From IMG/VR virus record IMGVR_UViG_2909298281_000004: a stretch of DNA of 15,913 nucleotides; one strand, given 5' to 3'. This stretch comes from a virus (Duplodnaviria > Heunggongvirae > Uroviricota > Caudoviricetes). The notes below the pieces were generated by a model that saw only the letters and a program-made list of their open reading frames with translations, searched no databases and had not been told where the DNA came from. The position numbers and the translations under genes were made by a program. Below are positions 1 to 15,626 of this stretch, piece by piece (position 1 is the stretch's first letter; each line of letters starts with the position of its first letter).

Positions 1-1053
1 TTACGGGGTAATGCCAACCGCTGCCGCCACTTTGTCGCCACTTGGCAGCGTTGCCAGAGGATTGAAACGGAGCGCCGTTTCCAGATGATCCGGTGCCAGA
101 TGAGCGTAACGCATAGTCATTTTTATATCGTGATGTCCGAGGATTTTTTGCAAAGCAAGGATATTTCCACCCGACATCATGAAATGCGCCGCAAACGTAT
201 GGCGCAGAACGTGTGTCAGTTGACCGCGAGGGAGCACGATTGACGTTTTTTCCATCACGGATAAAAATTGAAAATAGCAGTCTGTGAAGAAATTGAACCC
301 ATCAAGCGCCATGATCTCTTCATAAAGCTCTTTACTGATAGGGATGCTTCTGTTTTTCTTCCCCTTCGTTCTTACAAAGGTAATTCGGTATTTAGTCACC
401 TGTGATCGGGTAAGGTTTATTGCTTCTCGCCAGCGTGCGCCTGTGCTTAAGCATATCTTGACTACCAGTGCCAGAATTGGGTCCTGACGTTTGCAATCAG
501 CCAGCAGTTCAACAATCTGCTCATGGGTAAGCCATGCCATCTCTTTTTCTGCGATGGTGAATTTTCGCATGTTCTCCAGTGGGTTTGGATACGACCATTC
601 GCCCAGGCGGGATAGTTCGCTAAAAACACTACTTAGATAGCTTTGCTCCAGGTTAATGGTGACCGGGCTTGCTCCTTTCTTCCATTTCTCGCTGAAGTAG
701 ATCTCACCTGTCAGGCGTTTATCTCGATAGTGGGCAAACATTTTAGAGGTGAGATCGGTTGCAAGGGGATTGCCCAGAGCGTCAACCATCAACAGCAATT
801 TATCATAGACATGCTGCCCAGCGGTTAGAGATTTACCATGTAGTTTGAACCATAGCTCAACCACGTCTTTCAGTGTTCGACGATCCACTGATTCTCCCAG
901 CCAGGGCTTTGCTTCGGTTTCTTCCATCGTATGGCGCTCAAAAGCCAGAGCTTCGCCTTTGGTGGCGAATTGTTTACGCACACGACGCCCACTACGTCCG
1001 GCGGGGTAACATTCGCAAAGCCATTTTCCTGTGGTGAGTTTTCGTACTGCCAT
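1..1053 (-). CDS. int: Tyrosine integrase, P2/186 family
   Basis: ORF 1..1131(-) has the N-terminal and C-terminal pattern of 186/P2 integrases (MAVRKLTTGKW...KQFATKGEALAFE... and ...LTHVLRHTFAAHFMMSGGNILALQKILGHHDIKMTMRYAHLAP). I place the start at the internal ATG at 1051-1053 (MAVRK), which has a GGAGGG Shine-Dalgarno just upstream on the minus strand. The stop codon is at 1-3, so the gene is complete but attL is outside the window. Confidence 0.85.
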   Translation of the reverse strand: MAVRKLTTGKWLCECYPAGRSGRRVRKQFATKGEALAFERHTMEETEAKPWLGESVDRRTLKDVVELWFKLHGKSLTAGQHVYDKLLLMVDALGNPLATDLTSKMFAHYRDKRLTGEIYFSEKWKKGASPVTINLEQSYLSSVFSELSRLGEWSYPNPLENMRKFTIAEKEMAWLTHEQIVELLADCKRQDPILALVVKICLSTGARWREAINLTRSQVTKYRITFVRTKGKKNRSIPISKELYEEIMALDGFNFFTDCYFQFLSVMEKTSIVLPRGQLTHVLRHTFAAHFMMSGGNILALQKILGHHDIKMTMRYAHLAPDHLETALRFNPLATLPSGDKVAAAVGITP

Positions 1054-1239
1054 AAAAAATGCCCTCCAATAGAGAGCATTTTTACTGTATGTATAACCAG
1101 TGTCAATGTATGAAATCCTGCGACCATACATCTCACTGAAGCCATAATGAAGTTGGCTATTTTTTGCTATGTGAGTATGTGACTTTTGCGGTTAGCCTGC
1201 GACTCATTGTTATATTAGGCGCAGATATAAAAGCAAAAT

Positions 1240-1431
1240 TTATCGCGAGTTTTTAGTACAGATTTTTTTTGATTTACTAATAGTTCCATCATTGCAAACG
1301 AACTTTCCATCGGAGGTACAGTGAGAGACACCTCCCTTTTTCCCAGAACAAGGATAATTTTTAGCATAGGTAGTTAGTGGGTTTAATAACAAAGAGCATG
1401 ATAAAACCACAAAAAATACCTTACCAAGCAT
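1240..1431 (-). CDS. Hypothetical small secreted cysteine-rich protein (63 aa), candidate moron
   Basis: ATG at 1431(-) is preceded by a GGAGG Shine-Dalgarno at about 5 nt spacing. The N-terminus [23 protein letters not shown] looks like a signal peptide, followed by a roughly 40-aa lysine-rich segment with 4 Cys. The locus is markedly AT-rich compared with the tail genes. No homolog recognised. Confidence 0.45.
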
Positions 1432-1446
1432 AGTTTCCTCCCGGTA

Positions 1447-2016
1447 TTACCTAACGTACTTAATTGTTAAACTTATAATTTTCCCAATTATTTCAACATC
1501 TTCTATCTTGCACTCGAAGGCTCTGTTTCCACCTTCAACGAAGATTCTTCCACCGGGTAAACGAGTAATGTCGCGGATTGTTATTTCGCCATCAATACTT
1601 ATTACCCATTTACCGTCACGTATATCATCAAATTCTTTATCACAAATAAATTCAGAATTGTTATCTGTGATGACAAAAGGTTTTTTAAACGTAGAGGGTA
1701 GAAATCCCTTATCAAAAATATAAAAACCGTCTTCACGCAAGGCACCATCAGATAATACATATTTAGCAACTTCCATAGTATTTGTATTACCTGAAGTTTG
1801 CTTTGAACCATGTCCGGTTGTGAGCCAATTAAGCGAGGTGCCCGTTTCAAGGGCGCACTGGATTACCCATTCTGCTGGGAATGAGTCACGCATGTAGCGT
1901 GTGGCGAGTGTACTTTTAGAGATTCCTAAATGATCGCACAACGCCTGTCGAGTTTTGAATCCATAAGCTTCTACCATGCGCTCTATAGCGCCTCGTCCGC
2001 CTTTCTCCAAATTCAT
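1447..2016 (-). CDS. cI: Immunity repressor, 186 CI-like (about 189 aa)
   Basis: 191-aa ORF divergent from the early operon, similar in size to phage 186 CI and much longer than P2 C. The N-terminal region (ERMVEAYGFKTRQALCDHLGISKSTLATRYMRDSFPAEWVIQCALETGTSLNWL) looks like a helix-turn-helix repressor. The ORF track starts at GTG 2022; the ATG at 2014-2016 with an upstream GGAG is the more likely start. Confidence 0.75.
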   Translation of the reverse strand: MNLEKGGRGAIERMVEAYGFKTRQALCDHLGISKSTLATRYMRDSFPAEWVIQCALETGTSLNWLTTGHGSKQTSGNTNTMEVAKYVLSDGALREDGFYIFDKGFLPSTFKKPFVITDNNSEFICDKEFDDIRDGKWVISIDGEITIRDITRLPGGRIFVEGGNRAFECKIEDVEIIGKIISLTIKYVR

Positions 2017-2040
2017 GGTCACTCCAAGTGAACTTTTATC

Positions 2041-2069
2041 TTGACGATTTCACTGTGCGATCGTATGTT
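2041..2069 (+). promoter_or_regulatory. Candidate early rightward promoter pR (sigma70-like) for the apl-cII operon
   Basis: TTGACG at 2041-2046, a 17-nt spacer, then TATGTT at 2064-2069, about 70 bp upstream of the apl/cox start. GTGAAC (2028-2033) and GTTCAC (2076-2081) form an inverted pair flanking it, with a TTCAC half-site at 2049-2053; these may be operator half-sites. Confidence 0.4.
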
Positions 2070-2141
2070 TATGGTGTTCACAAAATACAAACGATCCGTA
2101 TTCGTCCTGATTAATCATCATTAAACGAGGAATGTTGCATC

Positions 2142-2363
2142 ATGAGACCTAACATTTCAATCACTCTTACCACGCCTCATGTGACTATTGAACGCTATAG
2201 CGAGCTGACAGGGCTGTCCATCGATACCATCAATGACATGTTGGCTGACGGACGCCTTATCCGTCACCGTCTGCGCAAAGATAAAAAACGTGAAAAAGTG
2301 ATGATCAACATAGCAGCCATGACCGTTGATGCGCTTTCAGAATGCAATCTAAACCTTAATTAG
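2142..2363 (+). CDS. Apl/Cox-like excisionase and early-switch regulator (73 aa)
   Basis: First gene of the rightward operon, divergent from cI, small and basic. The call rests on position in the P2/186 genetic switch, not on recognised sequence identity. Confidence 0.55.
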
Positions 2364-2395
2364 TTCGATTCTGAAATACATCAGAGGCATTGACC

Positions 2396-2905
2396 ATGTT
2401 TGATTACCAAGTTTCCAAACATCCACATTTTGATGAAGCCTGTCGTGCATTCGCATTGCGCCACAACCTAGTGCAACTGGCAGAACGTGCAGGCATGAAT
2501 GTGCAGATTCTGCGGAACAAGCTGAACCCAGCTCAACCTCATTTATTAACCGCACCAGAAATCTGGTTGCTTACCGATCTGACTGAAGATTCAACGCTGG
2601 TAGATGGCTTTCTGGCACAGATTCACTGCCTGCCATGTGTACCGATTAATGAGGTGGCAAAAGAGAAACTGCCGCATTACGTCATGAGTGCAACTGCAGA
2701 GATAGGGCGTGTCGCGGCAGGTGCGGTTTCTGGCGATGTAAAAACCAGTGCAGGCCGTCGTGATGCGATCAGCAGCATTAACTCTGTTACACGACTGATG
2801 GCGCTGGCTGCTGTTTCATTGCAGGCCCGTTTACAGGCTAATCCTGCGATGGCGAGTGCAGTTGATACCGTGACTGGCCTCGGTGCTTCATTCGGTTTGC
2901 TGTGA
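2396..2905 (+). CDS. cII: CII-like lysogeny-establishment activator (169 aa)
   Basis: Second gene of the early operon. Using the ATG at 2396 (AGAGG Shine-Dalgarno 8 nt upstream) gives 169 aa, the size I recall for 186 CII. Assignment is by position and size. Confidence 0.6.
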
Positions 2906-2912
2906 GGTGCTT

Positions 2913-3113
2913 ATGCTGACGAAAGAACCATCATTTGCATCGCTGCTGGTAAAACAAAGTCCGGCAATGCACTACGGTCACGGCTGGATCATGGGTGAGG
3001 ATGGTAAACGCTGGCATCCGTGCCGTTCACAAGATGAATTGCTGGCAGAACTATCTACGAAAAAACGGGGGAACAAATGGCTATTGAAGGCGCTGCGGCG
3101 ACTGTTCCATTAA
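2913..3113 (+). CDS. Small early protein, possibly Fil-like (about 66 aa)
   Basis: ORF 2883..3113; the likely start is the ATG at 2913 (MLTKEPSF...) preceded by GAGGTG. It sits where 186 carries fil, directly after cII. Function not established from sequence. Confidence 0.45.
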   Translation: MLTKEPSFASLLVKQSPAMHYGHGWIMGEDGKRWHPCRSQDELLAELSTKKRGNKWLLKALRRLFH

Positions 3114-3418
3114 GACCCGGTGAACGCCTGAATGGACTTAATCATATTGCGGAGTTAAGGGCGAAAGTTTTTGGTTTGAATATTGAGTCAGAGCTTGAGC
3201 GGTTTATTAAAGATATGCGTGATCCTCGGGATATCAATAATGAACAAAATAAACGGGCACTGGCTGCCATATTCTTTATGGCAAAAATTCCAGCTGAACG
3301 TCATAGCATCAGCATTAATGAGCTGACCACTGACGAAAAGCGGGAGTTGATTAAAGCAATGAATCATTTTCGTGCAGTGGTGAGCTTATTTCCCAGACGG
3401 CTAACCATGCCGAATTAA
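3077..3418 (+). CDS. Hypothetical early-region protein (113 aa), possibly Dhr-like
   Basis: ORF overlapping the end of the preceding gene as in a translationally coupled operon. No motif recognised; the position matches 186 dhr. Confidence 0.45.
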   Translation: MAIEGAAATVPLRPGERLNGLNHIAELRAKVFGLNIESELERFIKDMRDPRDINNEQNKRALAAIFFMAKIPAERHSISINELTTDEKRELIKAMNHFRAVVSLFPRRLTMPN

Positions 3419-3485
3419 CCAACTAATGAAATTAATGGCGTAAACCCGCCGGGCATCCCTTTATCTAAATTCAGGAGAATTGCTT

Positions 3486-3719
3486 ATGCGTAATATTGAA
3501 ACCCTCACGACCAAAACCGGACCGGATGATGCAGGTCTTAATCTTTTACTGACAGAGGCTCGTCTGGAAGAACGCCGGGCAAGGGCTGAAGCAATGGCTG
3601 CTCGCCTCGATAGCTTGGCGTGTCATATCACCTCCCGCCAGCTAAACCACGTCGAAGCGGCAGAACTGCTGCGTGTGACTGCTGAAGCAATCCAGAACGA
3701 AGCGCAGGAGATCCACTGA
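3486..3719 (+). CDS. Hypothetical small early protein (about 77 aa)
   Basis: ATG at 3486 with AGGAG at 3473-3477. The protein is charged and predicted helical (LEERRARAEAMAARL). Its stop overlaps the next start (ATGA at 3716-3719). Confidence 0.5.
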   Translation: MRNIETLTTKTGPDDAGLNLLLTEARLEERRARAEAMAARLDSLACHITSRQLNHVEAAELLRVTAEAIQNEAQEIH

Positions 3720-3946
3720 TGGCTGATGCAATGGATCTCGTACAGCAGCGCGTTGAAGAAGAACGCCAACGCCATATCCGTGCTGCCCGTGCCAAAACGC
3801 CGGGCGTGTCCCGCGTGCTTTGCGTTGAGTGTGAAGCGCCAATTCCGCCAGCACGCCGCCGTGCCATTCCGGGTGTGCAGCTTTGCATTACCTGTCAGGA
3901 AATCGCAGAGCTGAAAGGCAAACATTACAACGGAGGTGCTGTATGA
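3719..3946 (+). CDS. TraR/DksA-family C4 zinc-finger protein (75 aa)
   Basis: Contains CVEC-x17-CITC, a four-cysteine zinc finger in a small protein, typical of phage TraR-like proteins. AGGAG lies 8 nt upstream. Confidence 0.7.
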   Translation: MADAMDLVQQRVEEERQRHIRAARAKTPGVSRVLCVECEAPIPPARRRAIPGVQLCITCQEIAELKGKHYNGGAV

Positions 3947-4153
3947 GCACCATCCTGAAATGGGCAGGAAATAAAACCGCCATAATGTCCGAACTGAAAA
4001 AGCATCTTCCTGCTGGCCCGCGACTGGTTGAACCTTTCGCGGGTTCCTGTGCAGTGATGATGGAGACGGATTATCCCAGCTATCTTGTTGCGGATATTAA
4101 TCCTGATTTAATCAACCTCTATAAAAAGGTTGCTGCTGATTGTGAGGCGTTTA
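3943..4153 (+). pseudogene. Phage dam-like N6-adenine DNA methyltransferase, N-terminal about 70 codons, truncated by IS1
   Basis: ILKWAGNK...LVEPFAGSCAVMMETDYPSYLVADINPDLINLY aligns with the N-terminus of Dam-family methyltransferases (E. coli Dam: FLKWAGGK...LVEPFVGAGSVFLNTDF..ILADINSDLISLY). The reading frame runs into the IS1 left end and stops at 4156-4158. Confidence 0.75.
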
Positions 4154-4208
4154 GGTGATGCTGCCAACTTACTGATTTAGTGTATGATGGTGTTTTTGAG
4201 GTGCTCCA

Positions 4209-4484
4209 GTGGCTTCTGTTTCTATCAGCTGTCCCTCCTGTTCAGCTACTGACGGGGTGGTGCGTAACGGCAAAAGCACCGCCGGACATCAGCGCTATCT
4301 CTGCTCTCACTGCCGTAAAACATGGCAACTGCAGTTCACTTACACCGCTTCTCAACCCGGTACGCACCAGAAAATCATTGATATGGCCATGAATGGCGTT
4401 GGATGCCGGGCAACTGCCCGCATTATGGGCGTTGGCCTCAACACGATTTTACGTCACTTAAAAAACTCAGGCCGCAGTCGGTAA
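4209..4484 (+). CDS. insA: IS1 InsA
   Basis: 91-aa [46 protein letters not shown]... matches IS1 InsA as remembered. Confidence 0.9.
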
Positions 4485-4906
4485 CCTCGCGCATACAGCC
4501 GGGCAGTGACGTCATCGTCTGCGCAGAAATGGACGAACAGTGGGGATACGTCGGGGCTAAATCGCGCCAGCGCTGGCTGTTTTACGCGTATGACAGGCTC
4601 CGGAAGACGGTTGTTGCGCACGTATTCGGTGAACGCACTATGGCGACGCTGGTGCGTCTTATGAGCCTGCTGTCACCCTTTGACGTGGTGATATGGATGA
4701 CGGATGGCTGGCCGCTGTATGAATCCCGCCTGAAGGGAAAGCTGCACGTAATCAGCAAGCGATATACGCAGCGAATTGAGCGGCATAACCTGAATCTGAG
4801 GCAGCACCTGGCACGGCTGGGACGGAAGTCGCTGTCGTTCTCAAAATCGGTGGAGCTGCATGACAAAGTCATCGGGCATTATCTGAACATAAAACACTAT
4901 CAATAA
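4403..4906 (+). CDS. insB: IS1 InsB reading frame (expressed as InsAB' transposase by -1 frameshift)
   Basis: ORF with ...[18 protein letters not shown]...[12 protein letters not shown]..., characteristic of IS1 InsB. The A6C slippery run lies at 4460-4466 near the end of insA. Confidence 0.85.
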
Positions 4907-4921
4907 GTTGGAGTCATTACC

Positions 4922-5175
4922 AGCATGGCGCAGTCCACTTTTTTAGGAAAAGGGATGCTGAATGTAATTCTCATTGTTTGCGTCGATAATGTCGGCGTAA
5001 CCGCACCACGACCATATTGCAGGATTTTCCCGTTGGGTAATTTCATCCATCCATCACCACTGGCAAAAGAGGCCATGTCCGGTATCTGATTTTCCCCTGT
5101 CCCCACATCCCGTTTTGCCGCTTCTCCCAAACCAACGTTTAAGAAAATGCAGAGGTAACAGCTAACTGGCATCAT
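4922..5175 (-). pseudogene. Fragment of a tail-fibre variable segment (alternative C-terminal cassette), truncated by IS1
   Basis: The minus-strand ORF starts at 5175 and runs into the IS1 right end. It contains DGWMKLPNGKILQYG, which resembles the motif I recall at the start of variable C-terminal domains of Mu/P1/e14-type tail fibres. It is opposite in orientation and adjacent to the invertase, as S'v is to gin in Mu. Confidence 0.4.
5122..5147. other. Candidate Gin/Hin/Pin-type recombination crossover site (single copy)
   Basis: TTCTCCCAAACC-AA-CGTTTAAGAAAA is a 26-bp imperfect dyad resembling hixL (TTCTTGAAAACC AA GGTTTTTGATAA) and gix sites as recalled. It lies just inside the 5' end of the tail-fibre fragment, about 55 bp from pin. 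No partner site is present in the window. Confidence 0.35.
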
Positions 5176-5202
5176 CTCCGGTTTTTATTCAGGGGGATGA
5201 TC

Positions 5203-5769
5203 ATGCTTATTGGCTATGTACGCGTGTCAACAAATGACCAGAACACCGATTTGCAACGTAATGCACTGAACTGCGCGGGATGTGAGCGGATTTTTGAGGA
5301 CAAAATCAGTGGCACTAAGTCCGACAGACCGGGGCTGAAAAAACTACTCAGGACACTATCGGCAGGAGACACGCTGGTTGTCTGGAAGCTGGACAGGTTG
5401 GGGCGCAGTATGCGGCATCTTGTTACGCTGATAGAAGAGTTGCGCCAGCGTGGTGTGAATTTCAGAAGCCTGACTGACAGTATTGATACCAGTACCCCAA
5501 TGGGCCGTTTCTTTTTTCATGTCATGGGTGCCCTGGCTGAAATGGAACGCGAACTGATAGTTGAACGTACCAGGGCAGGGCTGGCTGCAGCTCGTGCCAA
5601 AGGCAGAGTAGGTGGACGCCGTCCTAAGTTGACCACCGAACAGTGGGCACAGATTGGGCGTTTACTCGAGGCCGGAGAATCAATACAGCGTATTGCACTG
5701 ATTTTTGATGTAGGCGTTTCTACCATTTATAGAAAATTTCCGGCAAATAAGATCAATGAATCCCCCTGA
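5203..5769 (+). CDS. pin: Serine DNA invertase, Gin/Pin/Hin/Cin family
   Basis: MLIGYVRVSTNDQNTDLQRNAL...LVVWKLDRLGRSMRHL...FRSLTDSIDTSTPMGRFFFHVMGALAEMERELI..., near-identical in pattern to Mu Gin with the catalytic Ser in YVRVSTNDQ. Start chosen at ATG 5203 (GGGGG 6 nt upstream) rather than the ORF-track ATG at 5197. Confidence 0.9.
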   Translation: MLIGYVRVSTNDQNTDLQRNALNCAGCERIFEDKISGTKSDRPGLKKLLRTLSAGDTLVVWKLDRLGRSMRHLVTLIEELRQRGVNFRSLTDSIDTSTPMGRFFFHVMGALAEMERELIVERTRAGLAAARAKGRVGGRRPKLTTEQWAQIGRLLEAGESIQRIALIFDVGVSTIYRKFPANKINESP

Positions 5770-5817
5770 ATCAGCATTATGTTGATTATCCCTGCAAGCA
5801 GACAAATACCGTTATTT

Positions 5818-5835
5818 TGTGTGAATAACGACACA
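5818..5835 (+). promoter_or_regulatory. Candidate Ogr-dependent late promoter element (TGT-N12-ACA) upstream of the tail operon
   Basis: TGT at 5818-5820 and ACA at 5833-5835 are separated by 12 nt, centred about 85 bp upstream of the FI ATG. This is the dyad that P2-type late promoters carry near -55. It sits within a larger palindrome CGTTATTttgtgtgAATAACG (5810-5830). Confidence 0.45.
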
Positions 5836-5911
5836 ACTGCGCTTAGCTGTTTGTCAGGCACAATCACTTCAACATAGGGCGAAGCCTAATCCAATCAGGA
5901 GGTTCGCCACT

Positions 5912-7084
5912 ATGGCTCAGGATTACCACCACGGGGTGCGCGTTGTTGAAGTCAACGAAGGCACCCGATCTATTACCACGGTGAGCACCGCCATCGTGGG
6001 TATGGTCTGCACGGGCGATGATGCCGATGCAAAAATGTTTCCTCTTAATAAACCCGTGCTGATCACTGATGTGCTGACTGCCAGCGGTAAAGCGGGTGAG
6101 TCAGGTACTCTGGCCCGTTCGCTGGATGCCATCGCTGACCAGGCAAAACCCGTGACCATTGTTGTGCGTGTGCCGCAGGGTGAAACGGAAGACGAAACCA
6201 CGACCAATATCATCGGCGCAGTGACTGCTGAAGGTAAAAAAACAGGTATGAAAGCCCTGTTATCTGCCCAGTCACAGCTCGGCGTTAAACCGCGCATTCT
6301 CGGCGTGCCAGGCCACGACACCAAGGCGGTAGCTACTGAGTTGCTGAGCGTGGCGCAAAGCCTGCGTGGATTTGCTTACCTGTCAGCGTATGGCTGCAAG
6401 ACAGTGCAGGAGGCGATCACTTACCGCGAAAACTTCAGCCAGCGCGAAGGGATGCTGATCTGGCCTGACTTTACTGGCTGGGACACGGTGCTGAATGCCG
6501 AAGCAACGGCATATGCCACCGCCCGTGCGCTTGGTCTGCGCGCCAAAATTGACGAGCAGACCGGATGGCACAAAAGCCTGTCCAACGTGGGCGTGAACGG
6601 TGTCACCGGAATTTCTGCAGATGTGTTCTGGGATCTGCAGGACCCGGCAACCGATGCAGGTCTGCTGAACCAGAACGACGTCACCACGCTTGTGCGTAAA
6701 GACGGTTTCCGCTTCTGGGGTTCCCGCTGCCTGAGTGATGACCCGCTCTTTGCCTTCGAAAACTACACCCGCACGGCGCAGGTGCTGATGGACACGATGG
6801 CAGAAGCACACATGTGGGCGGTGGATAAACCGCTTAACCCGTCGCTGGCCCGCGACATTATCGAAGGTATCCGCGCCAAAATGCGCAGCCTGGTCAGTCA
6901 GGGCTATCTCATTGGTGGTGATTGCTGGCTGGATGAGTCGGTGAACGACAAAGACACGCTGAAAGCCGGAAAACTCACCATCGACTACGACTACACGCCA
7001 GTGCCGCCACTTGAAAACCTGATGCTGCGTCAGCGCATCACCGATCAGTACCTGGTGAATTTCGCCAGCCAGGTCAGCGCGTAA
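5912..7084 (+). CDS. FI: Contractile tail sheath protein (P2 FI-like, 390 aa)
   Basis: [19 protein letters not shown]...[15 protein letters not shown]...[25 protein letters not shown]...[24 protein letters not shown] aligns along its length with P2 gpFI as remembered. CAGGAGG Shine-Dalgarno upstream. Confidence 0.92.
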
Positions 7085-7093
7085 GGGGACAAC

Positions 7094-7609
7094 ATGGCTT
7101 TACCACGCAAATTAAAACACCTGAACCTGTTTAACGACGGGAACAACTGGCAGGGGATCGTTGAGTCGCTGACGCTGCCGAAATTTACCCGCAAATATGA
7201 GAAGTATCGCGGCGGCGGAATGCCGGGTGCGGTGGATGTGGATCTGGGGCTTGATGACAGTGCGCTGGACACAGAATTTTCCATTGGTGGTACTGAATTG
7301 CTGCTGTTTAAACAGATGGGTAAAGCCACGGTGGATGGCATCCAGCTGCGCTTTACCGGCTCTATTCAGCGTGACGATACCGGGGAAGTGCAGGCCGTGG
7401 AGCTTGTCGTGCGTGGACGTCACAAAGAAGTGGATTCCGGCGAGTGGAAGACGGGCGAAAGCAACACCACCAAAGTGACCAGTACCAACAGCTACGCGAA
7501 GCTGACCATCAATGGTGAGGTGCTCTATGAAGTGGACCTTATCAACATGGTGGAAATTGTGGACGGTGTGGACCTGATGGAAGCGCACCGCAACGCCCTC
7601 GGCCTCTGA
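7094..7609 (+). CDS. FII: Tail tube protein (P2 FII-like, 171 aa)
   Basis: Immediately downstream of the sheath gene with the size and position of P2 gpFII; begins MALPRKLKHLNLFNDG. Confidence 0.88.
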   Translation: MALPRKLKHLNLFNDGNNWQGIVESLTLPKFTRKYEKYRGGGMPGAVDVDLGLDDSALDTEFSIGGTELLLFKQMGKATVDGIQLRFTGSIQRDDTGEVQAVELVVRGRHKEVDSGEWKTGESNTTKVTSTNSYAKLTINGEVLYEVDLINMVEIVDGVDLMEAHRNALGL

Positions 7610-7663
7610 TATATCTGAACGGCGCGGGATACCGCGCCAGAACCCAATTGACAGGACAGCAAA

Positions 7664-7966
7664 ATGAGCGATAAGCAGACTGAAAAGACCATTCAACTGG
7701 ATACCCCCATCAAGCGCGGTAAAACAGAAATCACCGAAATTGTGCTGCGTAAACCGCAGTCCGGTGCGCTGCGCGGTACACGCCTGCAGGCCATTATGGA
7801 TATGGATGTGAACGCGATGATGACCGTGATCCCCCGCATCTCCAGTCCGGCACTGACTGCACAGGAAATTGCAGAGATGGACCCGGCAGATCTCACTGCC
7901 ATGTCGGTTGAGGTTGTCACTTTTTTGTTGAAGAAGTCGGTGCTTGCCGGTTTACCGACAGCCTGA
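7664..7966 (+). CDS. E: Tail assembly chaperone E (P2 gpE-like)
   Basis: Small ORF between tube and tape-measure genes. It contains the slippery heptamer T_TTT_TTG at 7921-7927 and stops at 7964-7966. Confidence 0.85.
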   Translation: MSDKQTEKTIQLDTPIKRGKTEITEIVLRKPQSGALRGTRLQAIMDMDVNAMMTVIPRISSPALTAQEIAEMDPADLTAMSVEVVTFLLKKSVLAGLPTA

Positions 7967-8100
7967 CGGTTGACGATCTGGTGGCAGATATCGCCACCAT
8001 TTTTCACTGGCCGCCATCCGTTACTGACGTTATGCCGCTGACCGAAGTGCTGGAATGGCGGTATAAAGCGATTCAGAGAAGCGGGGCCAACGATGAGTGA
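7664..8100 (+). CDS. E+E' tail assembly chaperone made by programmed -1 frameshift
   Basis: After a -1 slip at 7921-7927 the frame stays open to TGA at 8098-8100, overlapping the T start at 8093. This matches the conserved gpE/gpE+E' arrangement of P2-like phages. Predicted from sequence, not shown experimentally. Confidence 0.7.
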
Positions 8101-11100
8101 TAACAACCTGCGTCTGCGGGTCATTCTTAATGCGGTTGACAAGCTCACCCGCCCATTTCGATCTGCGCAGGCCAGTTCAAGAGAACTGGCTGCTGCTGTC
8201 AAAAAATCCCGCGATGCAATAAAGCAGCTTGATCAGGCCGGGAGCAGTCTGGACAGCTTCCGAAAGCTGCAGGCAGAAAATCAGAAATTAGGCGACAGGC
8301 TGAACTATGCCCGCCAGCGTGCAAATTTGCTCAGTCAGGAACTGGGAGCGATGGGGCCGCCTTCGCAACGTCAGGTTGTTGCTCTGGGCCGTCAACGGCT
8401 GGCTGTTCAGCGCCTGGAAGAACGCCAGAAAAAGCTGCAGCAGCAGACGGCGCTTGTGCGTGCTGAACTGTACCGGGCGGGAATTTCTGCGAAAGACGAT
8501 GCGGGAGCAACTGCCCGTTTAGCCCGTGAAACATCACGTTATAACCAGGAACTTTCGAAACAGGAGGCGCGGCTGAAGCGACTGGGGGAAGCTCAGCGCA
8601 GGATGAATGCAGCGCGTGCCAGTTATGCCCGTTCGCTGGAGGTGCGTGATCGTATTGCAGGTGCCGGAGCCACCACCACGGCTGCAGGGCTGGCAATGGG
8701 TGCGCCAGTGATGGCGGCAGTAAAAAGCTATACCAGCATGGAAGATGCCATGAAAGGTGTGGCAAAGCAGGTCAATGGTCTGCGTGACGATAATGGCAAC
8801 CGCACTGCACGTTTTTATGAAATGCAGGATGCCATCAAGGCTGCCAGCGAACAGTTGCCGATGGAAAACGGTGCGGTGGACTTCGCTGCACTGGTTGAAG
8901 GTGGTGCGCGCATGAACGTCGCAAACCCTGACGACAGCTGGGAAGATCAGAAACGTGACCTGCTGGCCTTCGCCAGTACGGCAGCAAAGGCGGCAACAGC
9001 CTTTGAGCTGCCAGCGGATGAACTGTCAGAAAGTCTGGGGAAAATCGCCCAGCTCTACAAAATCCCCACCCGCAATATTGAACAGCTCGGTGATGCGCTG
9101 AACTATCTGGATGATAACGCCATGTCGAAAGGGGCAGACATCATTGATGTGATGCAACGTCTGGGCGGTGTGGCTGACCGTCTGGATTATCGTAAAGCGG
9201 CGGCGCTGGGTTCCACCTTCCTGACACTGGGCGCTGCGCCAGAGGTTGCAGCCAGTGCAGCAAACGCGATGGTGCGTGAATTGTCCATTGCCACCATGCA
9301 AAGCAAGAGTTTCTTTGAAGGGATGAATCTGCTGAAACTCAATCCTGAAGTGATTGAAAAGCAGATGACGAAGGATGCGATGGGAACCATCCAGCGCGTG
9401 CTGGAGAAGGTAAACGCGCTGCCGCAGGACAAGCGCCTGTCTGCCATGACTATGTTGTTTGGTAAAGAGTTTGGCGATGACGCGGCGAAACTGGCAAACA
9501 ACCTGCCGGAACTGCAGCGTCAGTTAAAACTGACAGCGGGCAATGATGCGCTCGGCTCCATGCAGAAAGAATCCGACATCAACAAAGACTCACTTTCTGC
9601 TCAGTGGTTGCTGGTCAAAACCGGAGCGCAGAACACCTTCAGCAGCCTGGGCGAAACGCTGCGCCAGCCGCTGATGGATATTCTGTACACGGTGAAAAGC
9701 GTCACGGGGGCGTTGCGTCGCTGGGTGGAAGCTAACCCGGAACTGACAGGCACACTGATGAAAGCATCGGCTGTTGTGGCTGCGGTTACCGTCGGCCTCG
9801 GCACCTTAGCGGTGGCGCTGGCTGCAGTGCTGGGGCCGCTGGCAGTGATCCGTCTGGGATTCTCTGTGTTGGGTATCAAAACGTTATCTTCCGTTACGGC
9901 AGCAGTAACTCGAACCAGCAGCGCGTTGTCCTGGCTGGCTGGCGCACCACTGGCACTGCTGCGACGCGGGCTTGCTTCATCGGGCAACGCCGCAGGTTTA
10001 CTTACTGCGCCGTTGTCGTCTTTGCGCCGCACGGCATCACTGACGGGAAATGTCCTGAAAACTGTAGCAGGTGCGCCGGTTGCACTTTTGCGGTCTGGAT
10101 TATCCGGTTTACGTGCTGTTGCTGTGATGTTTATGAATCCTCTGGCGGTACTGCGCGGTGGACTGGCCGCCGCAGGCACGGTGCTGCGAGTACTGGCATC
10201 TGGTCCACTGGCGATGCTGCGCGTTGCCCTGTATGCCATATCTGGTCTGTTAGGTGCTCTGCTCAGTCCGATAGGTCTTGTGGTTACTGCACTGGCGGGC
10301 GTGGCGCTGGTTGTCTGGAAATACTGGCAACCCATCACCGCATTTCTCGGTGGCGTGGTGGAAGGATTCAAAGCGGCGGCAGGTCCCATCAGTGCAGCGT
10401 TCGAACCGCTTAAGCCCGTGTTCCAGTGGATTGGCGACAAAGTGCAGGCGCTGTGGGGCTGGTTTACTGATCTGCTGACGCCCGTTAAGTCGACCTCTGC
10501 CGAACTGCAGAGCGCAGCGGCAATGGGGCGGCGATTCGGGGAGGCACTGGCGGAAGGGCTGAATATGGTCATGCATCCGCTGGACTCCCTGAAATCCGGC
10601 GTTTCCTGGTTGCTGGAGAAGCTCGGCATTGTCAGTAAAGAGGCCGCAAAGGCAAAACTGCCGGAAAGCGTGACGCGTCAGCAACCTGCGACGGTGAATG
10701 CAGACGGTAAAGTGATGATGCCATCGGGTGGTTTTCCATCATGGGGATATGGCTTTGCGGGGATGTATGACAGCGGCGGGTATATCCCGCGCGGGCAGTT
10801 TGGCATCGTCGGTGAAAACGGGCCGGAAATTGTTAACGGCCCGGCAAATGTGACCAGCCGGAGAAATACAGCTGCACTGGCTGCCGTTGTTGCCGGAATG
10901 ATGGGCGTTGCTGCCGCGCCAGCAGAGCTTCCACCGTTGCACCCTTTGGCACTTCCCGCGAAAGGTGGAGAAGCAATTGTGAGTCGCGCAGCCACTGTGC
11001 CGCTCGTTCAACGGATTGAGGCACCGACGCAGATCATCATTCAGACGCAGCCAGGACAAAGTGCGCAGGATATTGCGCGGGAGGTGGCACGCCAGCTTGA

Positions 11101-11170
11101 TGAACGTGAACGCAGGCTGAAGGCAAAAGCCAGGAGTAACTACAGCGATCAGGGGGGATACGACGCATGA
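8093..11170 (+). CDS. T: Tail tape measure protein (P2 gpT-like, 1025 aa)
   Basis: Very long ORF after E/E' with an N-terminal coiled-coil-like region, a hydrophobic Ala/Leu-rich repeat region and a C-terminal domain; its position is conserved in P2. Confidence 0.9.
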   Translation: MSDNNLRLRVILNAVDKLTRPFRSAQASSRELAAAVKKSRDAIKQLDQAGSSLDSFRKLQAENQKLGDRLNYARQRANLLSQELGAMGPPSQRQVVALGRQRLAVQRLEERQKKLQQQTALVRAELYRAGISAKDDAGATARLARETSRYNQELSKQEARLKRLGEAQRRMNAARASYARSLEVRDRIAGAGATTTAAGLAMGAPVMAAVKSYTSMEDAMKGVAKQVNGLRDDNGNRTARFYEMQDAIKAASEQLPMENGAVDFAALVEGGARMNVANPDDSWEDQKRDLLAFASTAAKAATAFELPADELSESLGKIAQLYKIPTRNIEQLGDALNYLDDNAMSKGADIIDVMQRLGGVADRLDYRKAAALGSTFLTLGAAPEVAASAANAMVRELSIATMQSKSFFEGMNLLKLNPEVIEKQMTKDAMGTIQRVLEKVNALPQDKRLSAMTMLFGKEFGDDAAKLANNLPELQRQLKLTAGNDALGSMQKESDINKDSLSAQWLLVKTGAQNTFSSLGETLRQPLMDILYTVKSVTGALRRWVEANPELTGTLMKASAVVAAVTVGLGTLAVALAAVLGPLAVIRLGFSVLGIKTLSSVTAAVTRTSSALSWLAGAPLALLRRGLASSGNAAGLLTAPLSSLRRTASLTGNVLKTVAGAPVALLRSGLSGLRAVAVMFMNPLAVLRGGLAAAGTVLRVLASGPLAMLRVALYAISGLLGALLSPIGLVVTALAGVALVVWKYWQPITAFLGGVVEGFKAAAGPISAAFEPLKPVFQWIGDKVQALWGWFTDLLTPVKSTSAELQSAAAMGRRFGEALAEGLNMVMHPLDSLKSGVSWLLEKLGIVSKEAAKAKLPESVTRQQPATVNADGKVMMPSGGFPSWGYGFAGMYDSGGYIPRGQFGIVGENGPEIVNGPANVTSRRNTAALAAVVAGMMGVAAAPAELPPLHPLALPAKGGEAIVSRAATVPLVQRIEAPTQIIIQTQPGQSAQDIAREVARQLDERERRLKAKARSNYSDQGGYDA
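9932..10262 (+). repeat. Degenerate tandem peptide repeats inside the tape-measure gene (about five copies of PLAxLRxGL)
   Basis: The translation shows APLALLRRGLAS / APLSSLRRTASL / APVALLRSGLSG / NPLAVLRGGLAA / GPLAMLRVALYA in series. Coordinates are approximate. Confidence 0.5.
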
Positions 11171-11652
11171 TGATGGTGCTGGGATTGTACGTGTTTATGC
11201 TGCGCACCGTTCCGTATCAGGAACTGCAGTATCAACGCAGCTGGCGACATGCGGCAAACAGTCGGGTAAACCGACGTCCGTCCACGCAGTTTCTGGGACC
11301 GGAAAACGACATGCTGACGCTTTCCGGTGTTCTTATGCCGGAAATAACAGGCGGCAGGCTGTCGTTGCTGGCACTGGAGCAGATGGCAGAACAGGGGAAA
11401 GCATGGCCCCTGATTGAAGGCAGCGGCACGATTTACGGCATGTATGTGATTGAGGGACTGAATCAGACTAAAACGGAGTTTTTCCGCGATGGTATGCCGC
11501 GCCGGATTGAGTTCACCCTGTCGCTCAAACGGGTGGATGAATCCCTGTCCGATATGTTCGGTGATCTCAGTGCGCAGCTGAATAATTTGCAGGATACGAC
11601 AACGTCTGCCTTAAGCGATATCAGTAAAACGGTGGGAGGGCTGCTGTCGTGA
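11167..11652 (+). CDS. U: Tail protein U (P2 gpU-like, 161 aa)
   Basis: ATGA overlap with the T stop; size and position match P2 gpU. Confidence 0.85.
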   Translation: MMMVLGLYVFMLRTVPYQELQYQRSWRHAANSRVNRRPSTQFLGPENDMLTLSGVLMPEITGGRLSLLALEQMAEQGKAWPLIEGSGTIYGMYVIEGLNQTKTEFFRDGMPRRIEFTLSLKRVDESLSDMFGDLSAQLNNLQDTTTSALSDISKTVGGLLS

Positions 11653-12749
11653 ATTTCAGCTCTGAACTGCTTAACAAAGGCAACAAAACTCCGGCATTCA
11701 GCATCAGTATTGAGGGTAAGGATATCACCACTGTGCTGGATAACCGCCTGATGAGTCTGACGCTGACGGACAATCGGGGCTTTGAAGCGGACCAGCTTGA
11801 TCTGGAGCTGGACGACGCCGACGGAAAAATCGTGCTGCCGCGCCGTGGTGCGGTCATTACGCTGGCGTTGGGCTGGAAGGGGCAGTCGCTTTTCCCGAAA
11901 GGAGCATTCACGGTGGACGAGATTGAACACACTGGCGCACCGGACCGCCTGACTATCCGGGCGCGAAGTGCTGATTTTTGTGAAACCCTGAATATCCGCC
12001 GTGAAAAATCGTGGCACAAGACCACCGTTGGGGAAGTGGTGAAGGAAATAGCTGTGCGGCACAAACTGAAGATGGCATTGGGTGAAGACCTGTCGGATAA
12101 ACCTGTGGAGCATATAGACCAGACCAATGAGAGTGACGGCAGTTTTCTGATGCGGCTGGCGCGCCAGTACGGTGCTATTGCGTCGGTGAAAAATGGCAAT
12201 CTGTTATTCATCCGGCAGGGACAGGGTAAAAGCGCCAGCGGTAAACCACTACCGGTTATCACTATCACACGTAAGGACGGCGACAGTCACCGCTTTACCC
12301 TGGCAGATCGCGGAGCCTACACGGGCGTAATTGCCAGCTGGTTGCATACCCGCGAACCCGCGAAGAAAGAAAGCACCACGGTGAAGCGTAAGCGCAGGAC
12401 TAAGAAGCAGAAGAAAGAGCCGGAAGCGAAGCAGGGCGATTACCTGGTGGGTACAGATGAAAACGTGCTGGTACTTAATCGCACCTATGCCAACCGGAGC
12501 AACGCCGAACGGGCGGCGAAAATGCAGTGGGAACGCCTGCAACGTGGCGTTGCGTCATTCTCGCTACAACTGGCAGAAGGTCGGGCGGATCTCTACACGG
12601 AAATGCCAGTGAAAGTCAGAGGCTTTAAACAGCCGATAGATGATGCGGAATGGACTATTACCACCCTGACGCATACTGTCAATCCGGATAACGGTTTTAC
12701 GACCAGTCTGGAGCTTGAAGTGAAGATTAATGATTTCGAAATGGAATGA
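11649..12749 (+). CDS. D: Tail protein D (P2 gpD-like, 366 aa)
   Basis: GTG start overlapping the U stop, with GGGAGGG upstream. It is the last late gene before ogr, as in P2. Confidence 0.85.
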   Translation: MNFSSELLNKGNKTPAFSISIEGKDITTVLDNRLMSLTLTDNRGFEADQLDLELDDADGKIVLPRRGAVITLALGWKGQSLFPKGAFTVDEIEHTGAPDRLTIRARSADFCETLNIRREKSWHKTTVGEVVKEIAVRHKLKMALGEDLSDKPVEHIDQTNESDGSFLMRLARQYGAIASVKNGNLLFIRQGQGKSASGKPLPVITITRKDGDSHRFTLADRGAYTGVIASWLHTREPAKKESTTVKRKRRTKKQKKEPEAKQGDYLVGTDENVLVLNRTYANRSNAERAAKMQWERLQRGVASFSLQLAEGRADLYTEMPVKVRGFKQPIDDAEWTITTLTHTVNPDNGFTTSLELEVKINDFEME

Positions 12750-12839
12750 TTCTTCGTAATAGAGAACTTTTAAGTTTTCAAAATGGAATAATGCGGTATC
12801 ATTATTGTGAATTTAGCAAAAATGGGGAGAACTCGAAAA

Positions 12840-13058
12840 ATGATGATTTGCCCACTGTGTGGAAGTGCCGCCCATACTCGCAGCAGTTTTCAGGTATCTT
12901 CATTGACCAAAGAGCGTTACAACCAGTGCCAGAACATTAACTGCAGCCATACTTTTGTTACCCATGAAACTTTTGTTCGTTCGATTGCAACGCCAAAAGA
13001 GTCAAATCCGGTTCAGCCGCATTCAATGAAATCAGGACAGGTGGCGCTCTCTCTTTGA
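12840..13058 (+). CDS. ogr: Ogr/Delta-type zinc-finger late-gene transcriptional activator
   Basis: MMICPLCGSAAHTRSS...KERYNQCQNINCSHTF matches the P2 Ogr pattern (CPLC...KERYHQCQNVNC). The ORF track extends to GTG 12807; I prefer the ATG at 12840 by analogy with P2 Ogr, which begins MFHCPLC. Confidence 0.8.
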   Translation: MMICPLCGSAAHTRSSFQVSSLTKERYNQCQNINCSHTFVTHETFVRSIATPKESNPVQPHSMKSGQVALSL

Positions 13059-13138
13059 CTCTGCCGCCAATTTGTCGCCATCGTTAAAAAACAGTGCTTC
13101 TAACATCATGATTTTAAACGGCATAAATTTCAGGCAAC

Positions 13139-13181
13139 AAAAAACCCATCAACCTTGAACCGAAATGGCGGGGTTGATGGG
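13139..13181 (-). terminator. Candidate Rho-independent terminator downstream of ybjL (minus strand)
   Basis: CCCATCAACC (13145-13154) pairs with GGTTGATGGG (13172-13181), and the plus-strand A-run at 13139-13144 gives a T-run 3' of the stem on the minus strand. It lies about 110 nt past the ybjL stop. The loop is long (17 nt), which weakens the call. Confidence 0.4.
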
Positions 13182-13293
13182 CTCCACAAAATGGGGACAT
13201 CAAAGAAAAGCAGTGGCACTAATTAAGACTGATGCCCTGCGGAAAAGTTCTGCGGTTGTGCAAAAAAATTTCATTTTCAGGGCAACTTCAGTT

Positions 13294-14979
13294 TTATCCT
13301 AATCCTGGCCATACCATGACGATGATTGTCCCTGCCAGCGTCAGCAGGACGTTGGCGATTGCGTAGGTGCCCGCGTAGCCCAGCGCAGGGATGTTACTGC
13401 GAGCTGTATCACTGATGATCTCCATTGCCGGCGCGCAGGTGCGTGCGCCCATCATTGCGCCGAACAACAGTGCGCGGTTCATTCGCAATACATAAGCACC
13501 GAACAAGAAACAGATAACCACGGGCACAAGACTGACAATTAATCCGGCAATCAACATCTGACCGCCAATCGCGCCCAGGCCGTTATTAATACCGCTACCG
13601 GCGCTCAGACCAACGCCTGCCATAAACACCATCAAGCCGAACTCTTTCACCATGCTTAATGCACCTTGCGGAATGTAACCGAAGGTCGGGTGGTTAGCAC
13701 GCATAAAGCCCAGCATAATTCCGGCGAATAACAACCCGGCAGCGTTCCCCATGCCGAAACTGAATGTGCTGAACTGGAAGGTGATCATCCCGATCATCAG
13801 CCCAATAACAAAGAAGGCGCAAAATGCCAGCAGGTCAGTGACCTGGCTGTGAATCGAGATAAAGCCGATGCGATCGGCGATGGTTTTTACGCGACGGGCA
13901 TCACCGCTGACTTGTAAAACGTCACCTTTGTTAAGCACGACGTTGTCATCTATCGGCATCTCAATCTGGCTACGAATGACGCGGTTAAGGAAGCAACCGT
14001 GATCGGTCAACTTCAGTTGTGCGAGACGTTTACCTACAGCGTTATGGTTTTTAACGACCACTTCTTCAGTGACGATACGCATGTCGAGAAGGTCACGATC
14101 GAAAACTTCTTTACCGTTACGGAAGCTGGGATCGAGTCGGGCATGGGCGTCGGGATAGCCTACCAACGCTATTTCATCGCCCATTTGTAGCACGGCATCA
14201 CCGTCTGGATTTGCCAGAATCCCGTTACGTCGAATACGTTCAATGTAGCAGCCGGTTTGTCGATAAATACCCAGTTCACGCAGATTTTTGCCGTCGGTCC
14301 AGGCCACCAGCTCCGGGCCGACGCGATAGGCGCGGATCACCGGTAAATAAACCTTACGGTTGGCATCAGTGTCCAGGCCACGTTCGCGGGCGATTTGCTG
14401 GGCGCTGGTCTGTAAGTCCTGATGCTGCAATTTCGGCAAGTAACGCGCACCAACAATCAAACTCACCAGACCGATTAAATAGGTTAAGGCATACCCGAGG
14501 CTCAGATTATCCAGTGCCAGTGAGAGCTGCCTGCTTTCCATGCCGGAATGACGCAGTGTATCGCCAGCACCGACCAGAACCGGTGTCGACGTCATAGAGC
14601 CTGCTAACATACCGGCCGTCAGGCCAATATCCCAGCCAAACAGCTTACCTAACCCTAAGGCGATCACCAGCGCACTGCCAACCATCACCAGTGCTAACAT
14701 TAGGTAATTTTTCCCATCGCGAAAAAAAATGGAAAAAAAGTTCGGTCCGGCTTCGACCCCGACGCAGAAAATAAACAGCATAAAGCCAAGATTAAGCGCA
14801 TCGGTGTTAATGCTGAAATGTTGTTGGCCTAATAACAGCGATACGACTAAAACGCCAATGGAATTACCCAGTTGGATCGAACCAAGTCGTAACTTTCCGA
14901 GACATAGCCCAAGCGCGAGGACCACAAATAATAACAGAATGTAATTCCCATTTAACAATTCGGCGACGTTTATATTCAC
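13294..14979 (-). CDS. ybjL: Putative transport protein YbjL (YidE/YbjL family, 561 aa)
   Basis: The 561-aa polytopic membrane protein [51 protein letters not shown]... matches E. coli YbjL as remembered. Confidence 0.9.
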
Positions 14980-15248
14980 GGAGGCTAACTTCTTGTTTAC
15001 TAGTAAGCTGTTGAAAGAAATGGTAATTTACGATAATGTTTTTTACCAGAATTCAGGGCGCAGATTCATTCAGCGCACCTAAACGATAGTAAAGTAACAA
15101 TATATTTTACTAGTGTAATCACATTAGGTATCAACGGCTATATGAATTGCGTTGGCCTATATTAGCATGGAATGCGAAGCGGCTTTATCTTACTGAACGC
15201 CACACTGGCGAAAAATGTGTTCGATAGACGCAGTGTCAGGAGGAACGA

Positions 15249-15626
15249 GTGAAACATAAACAACGTTGGGCGGGGGCAATCTGCTGTTTTGTCCTCTTCA
15301 TTGTGGTGTGCCTTTTTCTGGCGACGCACATGAAAGGCGCTTTTCGGGCTGCCGGGCATCCTGAAATCGGCTTGCTATTTTTCATTCTTCCTGGAGCAGT
15401 CGCCAGCTTCTTTTCACAGCGTAGAGAAGTCCTGAAACCTCTGTTTGGCGCAATGCTGGCGGCACCCTGTTCGATGCTCATTATGCGGCTGTTTTTTTCA
15501 CCGACGCGCTCATTCTGGCAAGAGCTGGCATGGTTACTAAGCGCGGTGTTCTGGTGTGCGCTGGGGGCACTGTGTTTCTTATTTATCAGTAGTTTGTTTA
15601 AACCACAGCACAGAAAAAATCAGTAA
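15249..15626 (+). CDS. ybjM: Inner membrane protein YbjM (125 aa)
   Basis: GTG start with AGGAGG 5 nt upstream; hydrophobic 125-aa protein at the position of ybjM between ybjL and grxA. Confidence 0.8.
   Translation: MKHKQRWAGAICCFVLFIVVCLFLATHMKGAFRAAGHPEIGLLFFILPGAVASFFSQRREVLKPLFGAMLAAPCSMLIMRLFFSPTRSFWQELAWLLSAVFWCALGALCFLFISSLFKPQHRKNQ

Follow-up and report, generated by a model that had tools for sequence, protein, structure and literature searches.

The DNA analysed in this study is a stretch of 15,913 nucleotides (IMG/VR record IMGVR_UViG_2909298281_000004), referred to as a whole as the window. Its positions 1-13149 are occupied by a defective prophage of the family Peduoviridae, whose insertion site is the 3' end of the host gene rybB, in the rcdA-ybjL interval. 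We consider, with a probability of about 0.9, that this element is what remains, after truncation by IS1, of a temperate myovirus belonging to the Fels-2/Elveevirus lineage. A preliminary description, made from the sequence alone, had presented it as a mosaic prophage with a 186-type immunity switch and a P2-type tail module. Its placing of the element in the P2 family is borne out by Pfam, PHROG and PDB matches. The combination that it took for a hybrid, a 186-type switch with a tail in the P2 order, is what members of the Fels-2/Elveevirus lineage normally show, and thus no evidence of hybrid origin. The type of element is already known: it is a routine cryptic prophage of a catalogued lineage, at a known attachment site, in a sequenced strain of enterotoxigenic Escherichia coli (ETEC). 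It is of little importance in itself, and the value of the present analysis is chiefly corrective.

Insertion at rybB and truncation by IS1

Over the 14,158 bases compared, the window is 100% identical to CP024252.1, a closed 4.89-Mb chromosome that belongs to ETEC strain D181 (O182:H21, phylogroup B1; PMC8281228). None of the complete RefSeq E. coli genomes contains the whole window, the top one reaching 96% coverage at 96.8% identity. E. coli B was considered as the source and rejected, the protein encoded across the junction between a truncated dam gene and IS1 (see below) being on record only in CP024252.1.

The small RNA gene rybB lies on the minus strand at 13136-13214 and is full length (Rfam RF00110, 105 bits, model positions 1-79 of 79). 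In the K-12 annotation rybB alone lies between rcdA and ybjL, and its 3' end serves as the attachment core: the 14-bp sequence AACAAAAAACCCAT (13136-13149) is present in K-12 as a single copy, at the rybB 3' end, and is common to attL, attR and the empty K-12 site. D181 has a second copy 75-88 bp to the left of the window start, and host identity ends exactly at the two copies. An attP rebuilt from both phage arms agrees at 178 of 182 positions with the contiguous ogr-int spacer of contig KP12_3. As host identity ends at both cores and attP can be rebuilt, the prophage spans from just outside the window to position 13149. The extent proposed earlier, 1-13058, has to be revised accordingly, the true right end being the core at 13136-13149 and the left core lying outside the window. 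Both attL and attR (phage arm plus core, 13059-13149) are intact, with rybB complete at attR, and the host genes ybjL, ybjM and grxA occupy 13294-15913. After the insertion, the DNA just beyond the rybB terminator is phage sequence.

Gene families were assigned by Pfam, PHROG and PDB matches, with family E-values from 1e-11 to 1e-78, far past chance. At the left end lies int (1-1053, minus strand; Int_N and Phage_integrase domains), coding for a tyrosine integrase of 350 amino acids (aa) from an internal ATG, the open reading frame (ORF) extending to 1131. The integrase shares 95% identity with its KP12_3 counterpart; against 186, Fels-2 and Cartapus the value is 54%, and against P2 35%. By its insertion site and duplicated core, the element belongs to the rybB-integrated (Rybb*) class, together with the Rybb* prophages of E. 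coli B, W and Crooks, which share its attachment site; the site is also filled in strains REL606, TL012, G3/10 and 50EVAW. Prophages at this site appear in a published table under the names Rybb*W, Rybb*B and Rybb*Cr (PMC3032704). A literature search combining rybB, prophage, integration site and P2-like found nothing, and the naming comes from that table.

Near-identical GCCGCCAATTTGTCGCCA and GCCGCCACTTTGTCGCCA motifs were observed on both sides of the attachment core, in the ogr-side arm (13062-13085) and in the 3' end of int (positions 1-60 of the window, minus strand), and the int-side arm holds two copies of the direct repeat AAAACAATAAGTTAG (6003-6040 of locus L008). These motifs and the repeat are candidate Int arm sites and Apl/IHF sites.

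The early genes break off within dam. About 70 codons of its 5' part remain (3943-4153, plus strand; PF02086 profile positions 1-69 of 253), from a gene that measures 858 nt in Cartapus, REL606 and TL012, and the truncated frame stops inside the adjoining insertion sequence at 4158, giving a 71-aa product (3943-4158). This insertion sequence is a complete IS1 of 768 bp (4154-4921, plus strand) with insA and insB (Pfam InsA and DDE_Tnp_IS1) and terminal inverted repeats, whose ends, GGTGATGCTGCCAACTTACTGAT at 4154 and GTCATTACC at 4921, are both intact. On its other side IS1 cuts an alternative, invertible tail-fibre C-terminal segment, of which a 5' fragment of 254 bp is left (4922-5175, minus strand; Gp53-like_C, phrog_1396 and phrog_2557). 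What has been lost was gauged against the prophage of TL012, an apparently complete sibling of 32,965 bp at the rybB site, with the same gene order and 96-97% identity to both arms. Position 4153 of the window corresponds to 8363 on TL012 and position 5074 to 28671, about 20 kb apart; from 5074 rightwards the window aligns to TL012 at the 5' end of a 492-nt ORF beside the invertase gene, and IS1 sits exactly at the join. Absent with respect to TL012 are the remaining part of dam, the replication gene A, the DinI/Tum-like region, the cargo genes and cos; the portal, terminase, scaffold, capsid and head-completion genes; the holin, lysozyme and spanin genes; and the tail-completion and baseplate genes, most fibre genes and the fibre chaperones. 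The preliminary description had overlooked IS1, the truncated dam, the tail-fibre fragment, the invertase and the deletion itself.

The 9-mers flanking IS1, AGGCGTTTA and AGCATGGCG, differ, and there is consequently no target-site duplication. Two routes would fit the loss: an adjacent deletion promoted by IS1, or recombination of two copies of IS1. A seemingly shared IS1 junction in two other strains was discarded, as the IS1 in question is an unrelated copy, within ybjC or beside it, and the prophages of these strains are apparently complete.

Beside the fibre fragment lies the gene of a serine DNA invertase of the Gin/Cin type (5203-5769, plus strand; Resolvase and HTH_7), 99% identical to that of Cartapus and 84% to that of Fels-2, and without homologue in P2, 186, PsP3 and Wphi. 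A gix/cix-like sequence, TTCTCCCAAACCAACGTTTAAGAAAA, is found at 5122-5147 (plus strand), which we take to be a crossover site on the model of the Gin and Cin sites and of the "Mu-like inversion crossover site" annotated in the tail-fibre gene of 186. It is the one match in the window at up to 3 mismatches, and no partner site was found there in the same search. As judged from the window, the invertase is now left without a second site and without a substrate.

The gap might in principle be an assembly artefact, or the element an intact, inducible prophage with its other genes elsewhere, and the intactness of the retained genes, which is all that speaks in its favour, would suit such a reading. 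With both host flanks contiguous within about 13.2 kb of a closed 4.89-Mb chromosome, and a complete IS1 with both of its ends at the junction, we find it scarcely credible. Another possibility is that the tail genes still present have been domesticated and produce a functional tail-like particle (tailocin) under the control of CI and Ogr, since none of FI, FII, E/E', T, U, D and ogr is shortened by comparison with Cartapus. This we regard as extremely unlikely: the baseplate genes V, W, J and I, the spike, X, the tail-completion genes R and S, the fibre genes H and G and the lysis genes are missing. Furthermore, the siblings at rybB in REL606, G3/10 and 50EVAW have decayed independently and the losses differ, REL606 lacking FI to most of D and G3/10 lacking FI to part of T, so that no module is retained in common. 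The junction of dam with IS1 is found on a single public contig (CP024252.1), and for this reason the deletion looks recent; together with the unlike losses of the other strains, this points to ordinary, recent decay of an IS1-truncated prophage.

Lineage of the early and tail genes

The tail module, entirely on the plus strand, comprises the sheath FI (390 aa, 5912-7084; Pfam sheath domains), the tube FII (171 aa, 7094-7609; PF04985), the assembly chaperones E (7664-7966) and E+E' (7664-8100; PF10109, and phrog_6416 with E=1e-22 for E'), the tape measure T (1025 aa, 8093-11170; phrog_28, E=3e-197), the tail protein U (11167-11652; PF06995), the tail and late control protein D (366 aa, 11649-12749; PF05954) and the late-gene activator ogr/B (72 aa, 12840-13058; PF04606). 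E' is read in the -1 frame, downstream of a frameshift site TTTTTTG at 7922-7928. The late genes do follow the P2 order, as the preliminary description had noted. The same order, FI-FII-E/E'-T-U-D-ogr, is found in 186, PsP3, Fels-2 and Cartapus, and hence does not discriminate a tail of P2 type.

Every gene was compared by tblastn with the complete genomes of P2, 186, PsP3, Wphi, Fels-2 and Cartapus and with contig KP12_3, and the values that follow are percentages of amino acid identity. FI, which had been said to match P2 FI closely and does not, is 99% identical to its Cartapus counterpart, 91% to that of Fels-2, 70% to that of 186 (186 J) and 68% to that of P2. In the same order of phages, the values are 100, 95, 58 and 53% for FII, 100, 90, 37 and 44% for E, 98, 85, 49 and 51% for U, and 97, 86, 57 and 54% for D; T is 88% identical to Cartapus, in which it has the same length, and 68% to Fels-2, while P2 and 186 align over 15-19% only (P2 over 15%). 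The five proteins FI, FII, E, U and D are thus 37-70% identical to P2, 186, PsP3 and Wphi alike, and the near-identity of structural genes expected of a P2-type phage (Peduovirus) is not found. The early genes rank in the same way: for cII the values are 99% (Cartapus), 89% (Fels-2) and 69% (186), P2 giving no match; the DUF2732 gene gives 95, 81, 46 and 38%, and the TraR gene 99, 89, 68 and 47%, for Cartapus, Fels-2, 186 and P2, respectively. From cII to the dam fragment the ranges are 93-99% for Cartapus, 80-89% for Fels-2, 46-81% for 186 and 0-47% for P2. Among the seven references, homologues of dam and of the invertase are confined to Fels-2, Cartapus and KP12_3. Nucleotide identity to Cartapus amounts to 95.7% over 2393-4153, 96.8% over 5059-8192 and 94.3% over 8635-12970.

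Because the ranking is uniform in tail and early genes, both modules belong to one lineage, about equally far from P2 and 186. Fels-2 is the best of the five phages that the preliminary description had singled out for comparison (P2, 186, PsP3, W-phi and Fels-2) in both modules, and Cartapus reaches 94-97% nucleotide identity over cII-dam and invertase-D; uniform best hits to one described phage across both modules are the very outcome which that description had named as speaking against its proposal. A recombinant that took its immunity region from a 186-like phage and its tail module from a P2-like phage is therefore very improbable. It could draw on the CI, CII and Fil families having first been described in 186, on a tail gene order equal to that of P2, and on the unlike GC content of the two regions. 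The tail, however, is 97-100% identical to Cartapus (T 88%) and 85-95% to Fels-2 (T 68%), and no closer to P2 (44-68%) than to 186 (37-70%); the early genes rank alike; Fels-2, Cartapus and the intact TL012 prophage each hold both modules; and the tail order is common to all these phages.

As for base composition, the contrast noted earlier between the immunity region and the tail genes is real, with a GC content of about 35-44% over 1000-2250 and 53-60% over the tail genes (about 40% for orf63-cI-apl against 55.8% for FI-D). As a sign of mosaicism it fails, since P2, 186, PsP3, Fels-2 and Cartapus, the five references with a full tail module, all show the same gradient (41.5-45.6% for cI/C-apl/cox and 55.1-56.6% for FI-D), and composition is thus no evidence of a recent join. 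The cumulative GC skew simply tracks gene direction. Gene order and an AT-rich immunity region are traits of the Peduoviridae as a whole, unusable for inferring mosaicism.

A genuine mosaic joint lies elsewhere. Identity to Cartapus and Fels-2 ends at about 2393 (or 2356), just before cII, and at about 12970-12979, inside ogr, and, once the phage genome is taken as a circle, what lies between these edges is a single contiguous cassette of about 2.6 kb, ogr(3')-attP-int-orf63-cI-apl. Relative to Cartapus and Fels-2, int is 54%, cI 38-41% and ogr 61-64% identical, and apl gives no BLAST match, whereas in prophages of the same rybB site the cassette is 96-99.9% identical. On these alignments, the ogr-attP-int-cI-apl cassette is the sole major unit that differs from Cartapus and Fels-2, and is the real variable unit. 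Exchange of the integration and immunity unit is usual among P2-like phages, as reportedly described by Nilsson et al. in 2011. The ogr product, 98% identical to that of KP12_3, has one protein accession common to REL606, TL012, G3/10 and 50EVAW.

The closest described phages are Escherichia phage Cartapus and Klebsiella phage 4LV2017 (Peduoviridae, Elveevirus), with the same gene order as the window in both arms. Cartapus shares a T of 1025 aa, the invertase, dam and a CI/Cox-like/CII/Fil switch, with proteins 93-100% identical (T 88%). It differs in int (54%), cI (41%), ogr (64%) and apl (no BLAST match), lacks orf63 and has other cargo beside int, while the window element lacks the 20 kb or so already described. 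Fels-2 (Salmonella, Felsduovirus) resembles the window in its tail (85-95%, T 68%) and early proteins (80-89%), in its invertase, dam and 186-type switch, and in protein lengths (FI 390, FII 171, E 100, U 161 and D 366 aa), and differs from it at the nucleotide level (72-85%) and in int, cI, apl and ogr (38-61% or no match). 186 (Eganvirus) shares the two-domain CI, a divergent Cox/Apl-like gene, CII (69%) and Fil, but its attachment site is a tRNA-Ile gene, it has neither invertase nor dam, and its tail is 37-70% identical. P2, Wphi, P2 Hy dis (Peduovirus) and the E. coli B remnant P2*B have in common with the window the FI-FII-E/E'-T-U-D-ogr order, the TTTTTTG frameshift site and an Ogr-type activator; P2 differs by its 99-aa C repressor with Cox and B, the lack of CII and Fil, and a tail that is 44-68% identical.

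The dam fragment, invertase, fibre fragment and one crossover site conform to an Elveevirus/Fels-2-like layout. As a rough product of identity and coverage, the TL012 prophage scores 0.73 with Cartapus, 0.64 with Fels-2 and 0.16-0.18 with P2, 186, PsP3 and Wphi (186 0.17). For a genus, the threshold set by the ICTV is about 70% whole-genome nucleotide similarity. The remnant itself shares 9.2 kb with Cartapus at 94-97% nucleotide identity, a whole-genome score not being computable from a remnant.

The immunity region and the prophages of E. coli B

The repressor gene cI (1447-2016, minus strand) belongs to the 186 family. Its product, 189 aa from ATG (191 aa from an upstream GTG), has both domains of 186 CI (Phage_CI_repr, PF07022, E=3e-33; Phage_CI_C, PF16452, E=2e-28), and residues 10-183 match the 186 CI structure (PDB 2FJR, E=3e-31). 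Divergent from cI lies the gene of a 73-aa Apl/Cox-like excisionase and repressor (2142-2363, plus strand; phrog_575 "Cox-like excisionase and repressor", E=6e-31), followed on the same strand by cII, for a lysogeny-establishment activator of 169 aa (2396-2905; PF06892 (CP76), E=3e-42), fil, of the 186 Fil family (2913-3113; PF10893), and three genes identified by Pfam, namely a DUF5347 gene (3077-3418; 85% identical to Fels-2), a DUF2732 gene (3486-3719) and a TraR/DksA zinc-finger gene (3719-3946). The long CI of about 190 aa and the 169-aa CII-like protein of the preliminary description are therefore confirmed, and the lysogeny switch is of the 186 type, with a two-domain CI, a Cox/Apl-type first lytic gene, then CII and Fil, and not of the short P2 C type. 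Of its face-to-face apl/cI arrangement, the divergent Apl-like gene is present, and the promoters are candidates (see below); the arrangement would in any case not separate 186 from P2, because P2 likewise has convergent promoters, according to a passage of PMC1904263. One further component of a 186-type switch, a LexA-controlled Tum-type antirepressor, has no gene in the window; the DinI-like gene region downstream of A in TL012, REL606 and Cartapus falls within the D181 deletion.

CI is 97% identical to that of Rybb*B in REL606, the first 93 residues being the same, and 32% identical to 186 CI, so that 186 and the present element are presumably heteroimmune. The Apl-like protein aligns with 186 Apl along a 20-aa stretch over the helix-turn-helix alone (E=1e-4), and its sole match in a PDB search was a "CAP REPEAT" entry, 8VD6, which is not interpretable.

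Between cI and apl lies the switch region (2017-2141), in which promoters and an operator can be proposed, with roles assigned by analogy with the 186 annotation. A pR-like site, TTGACG-17-TATGTT, is found at 2041-2069 (plus strand), in a scan of 1900-2500 in which about 1.5 such sites are expected by chance, not above shuffles; no terminator was found in the same scan. A possible weak pL was read by eye on the minus strand, TTGAAA (2160-2155) -17- CAACAT (2137-2132). The repeat search of the region returned an imperfect 18-nt inverted repeat (2059-2096), which is a candidate operator, and no direct-repeat family, hence no operator set can be defined. In 186, CI also represses pB, the promoter of the ogr homologue B. 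When operators shared between pR and the region upstream of ogr were sought, the sole shared 9-mer was GAACTTTTA, at 2030-2038 and 12764-12772. It could be a CI half-site, although a single shared 9-mer is near chance expectation, the probability of one such as this being estimated at about 0.1 or more in AT-rich DNA.

With these elements, a course of events can be proposed. The phage would have integrated through its own tyrosine integrase at the rybB 3' end. With about 20 kb now missing, IS1 is the link between codon 70 or so of dam and the alternative fibre segment. By analogy with 186, CI would still be made and repress the candidate pR, and would confer immunity to homoimmune relatives. 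The element would be unable to replicate, to package DNA, to lyse the cell or to build a complete tail, and would no longer respond to the SOS signal through a Tum-type antirepressor, because that region is deleted. Residual excision may persist, since both att sites, int and apl are intact, and genes may be donated to incoming relatives by recombination.

Several points weigh against this account as a whole. Promoters pR and pL, like the operators of CI, are candidates, the promoter scan not rising above chance. The 186-like behaviour of the switch would be an analogy, as CI is 32% identical to 186 CI and the Apl-like protein barely aligns, and the functional state of the D181 remnant is read from its genes. 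The missing target duplication cannot tell an adjacent deletion from recombination between IS1 copies, and a formal genus is not assignable from a remnant. Finally, the tail module contains small internal mosaics: a 440-bp patch in T (8193-8634) has no alignment with Cartapus, 50EVAW or G3/10, and is 99% identical in KP12_3.

The preliminary description had also mentioned a defective P2-related prophage with non-P2 immunity in E. coli B as a possible relative. E. coli B in fact holds two different P2-family remnants, which are easily confused. At rybB, strain REL606 of E. coli B has a defective sibling of 24 kb whose cI, apl and cII are the same and which is 97.2% identical to the window over int-dam and 99% over D'-ogr-attR. 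The REL606 element keeps A, a retron, the portal, terminase, head and baseplate genes and the fibres, whereas the D181 element keeps the tail core and has neither the retron nor anything from dam to the fibres. This element is Rybb*B, the carrier of retron Ec86, listed separately from P2*B (PMC3032704). A title by Dodd and Egan (1996), as given in a reference list (PMC6868368), puts Ec86 in "a 186-related prophage", which is probably Rybb*B, because Rybb*B carries the retron. The second remnant, P2*B, lies between yegQ and yegR; it encodes a sheath of 396 aa and, besides cox, a C repressor of 99 aa that shares 65% identity with P2 C. Defence-type cargo was observed in both remnants: a retron reverse transcriptase and effector in the rybB element, and an "ABC-three component system" with an AAA ATPase in the yegQ-yegR element (loci L010 39893-41941 and L014 22707-26398).

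It is P2*B, and not the rybB element, that would likely have been the donor of the immunity of P2 Hy dis, because it has a 99-aa repressor of the P2 C family and cox, unlike the rybB CI. Among P2, P2 Hy dis and Wphi, the repressors show mutual identities of 43-63%, and thus form one protein family, and the structural genes of these phages are more than 96% identical, according to passages of PMC1904268. That the window element is the E. coli B prophage which gave P2 Hy dis its non-P2 immunity, or a copy of it, seems on this evidence highly unlikely. Its REL606 relative at rybB is close indeed, at 97% both over int-dam and in CI. The window, however, comes from ETEC D181 and not from strain B, its CI belongs to another family than the repressors of P2, Hy dis and Wphi, and it has no short P2-type C repressor with cox, such as the separately listed yegQ-yegR element has. 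The suggested kinship to a B prophage is therefore right as regards the sibling Rybb*B, and wrong as regards the Hy dis donor, which would be the other element.

One may ask whether the IS1-truncated remnant is kept for a benefit to the host rather than simply decaying. If so, CI might exclude homoimmune rybB phages, or the phage DNA by the rybB terminator might alter RybB expression, and the orphan invertase and the tail core might serve as a recombination reservoir yielding hybrid phages, as in the case of P2 Hy dis. We think this very unlikely, as the strain-specific junction and the unlike deletions elsewhere argue for plain decay.

Accessory gene and further observations

Within the cassette, a small AT-rich accessory gene, orf63 (1240-1431, minus strand), encodes a 63-aa YdcA-like protein with a hydrophobic N-terminus (phrog_6000, E=5e-34; PF27300 YdcA on the product record). 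No homologue was found in P2, 186, PsP3, Wphi, Fels-2, Cartapus or KP12_3. With a GC content of about 35%, it sits between int and cI likewise in REL606, TL012, G3/10 and 50EVAW, and it is likely a lysogenic-conversion cargo gene.

In T, an antisense ORF of 342 aa (9601-10629, minus strand) runs over the repetitive middle of the gene, rich in Ala, Leu and Gly, where the AT skew dips to -0.29 (9750-10250). It seems to result from the codon composition rather than to be a gene.

Contig KP12_3, used above as a reference, is the record OM835953.1, "Klebsiella phage KP12 clone KP12_3", labelled Vequintavirinae. The record holds a circularly permuted P2-family genome in which attP is contiguous and which is 99% identical to the window in the tail arm; rather than belonging to phage KP12, it is probably an induced prophage that was co-assembled.

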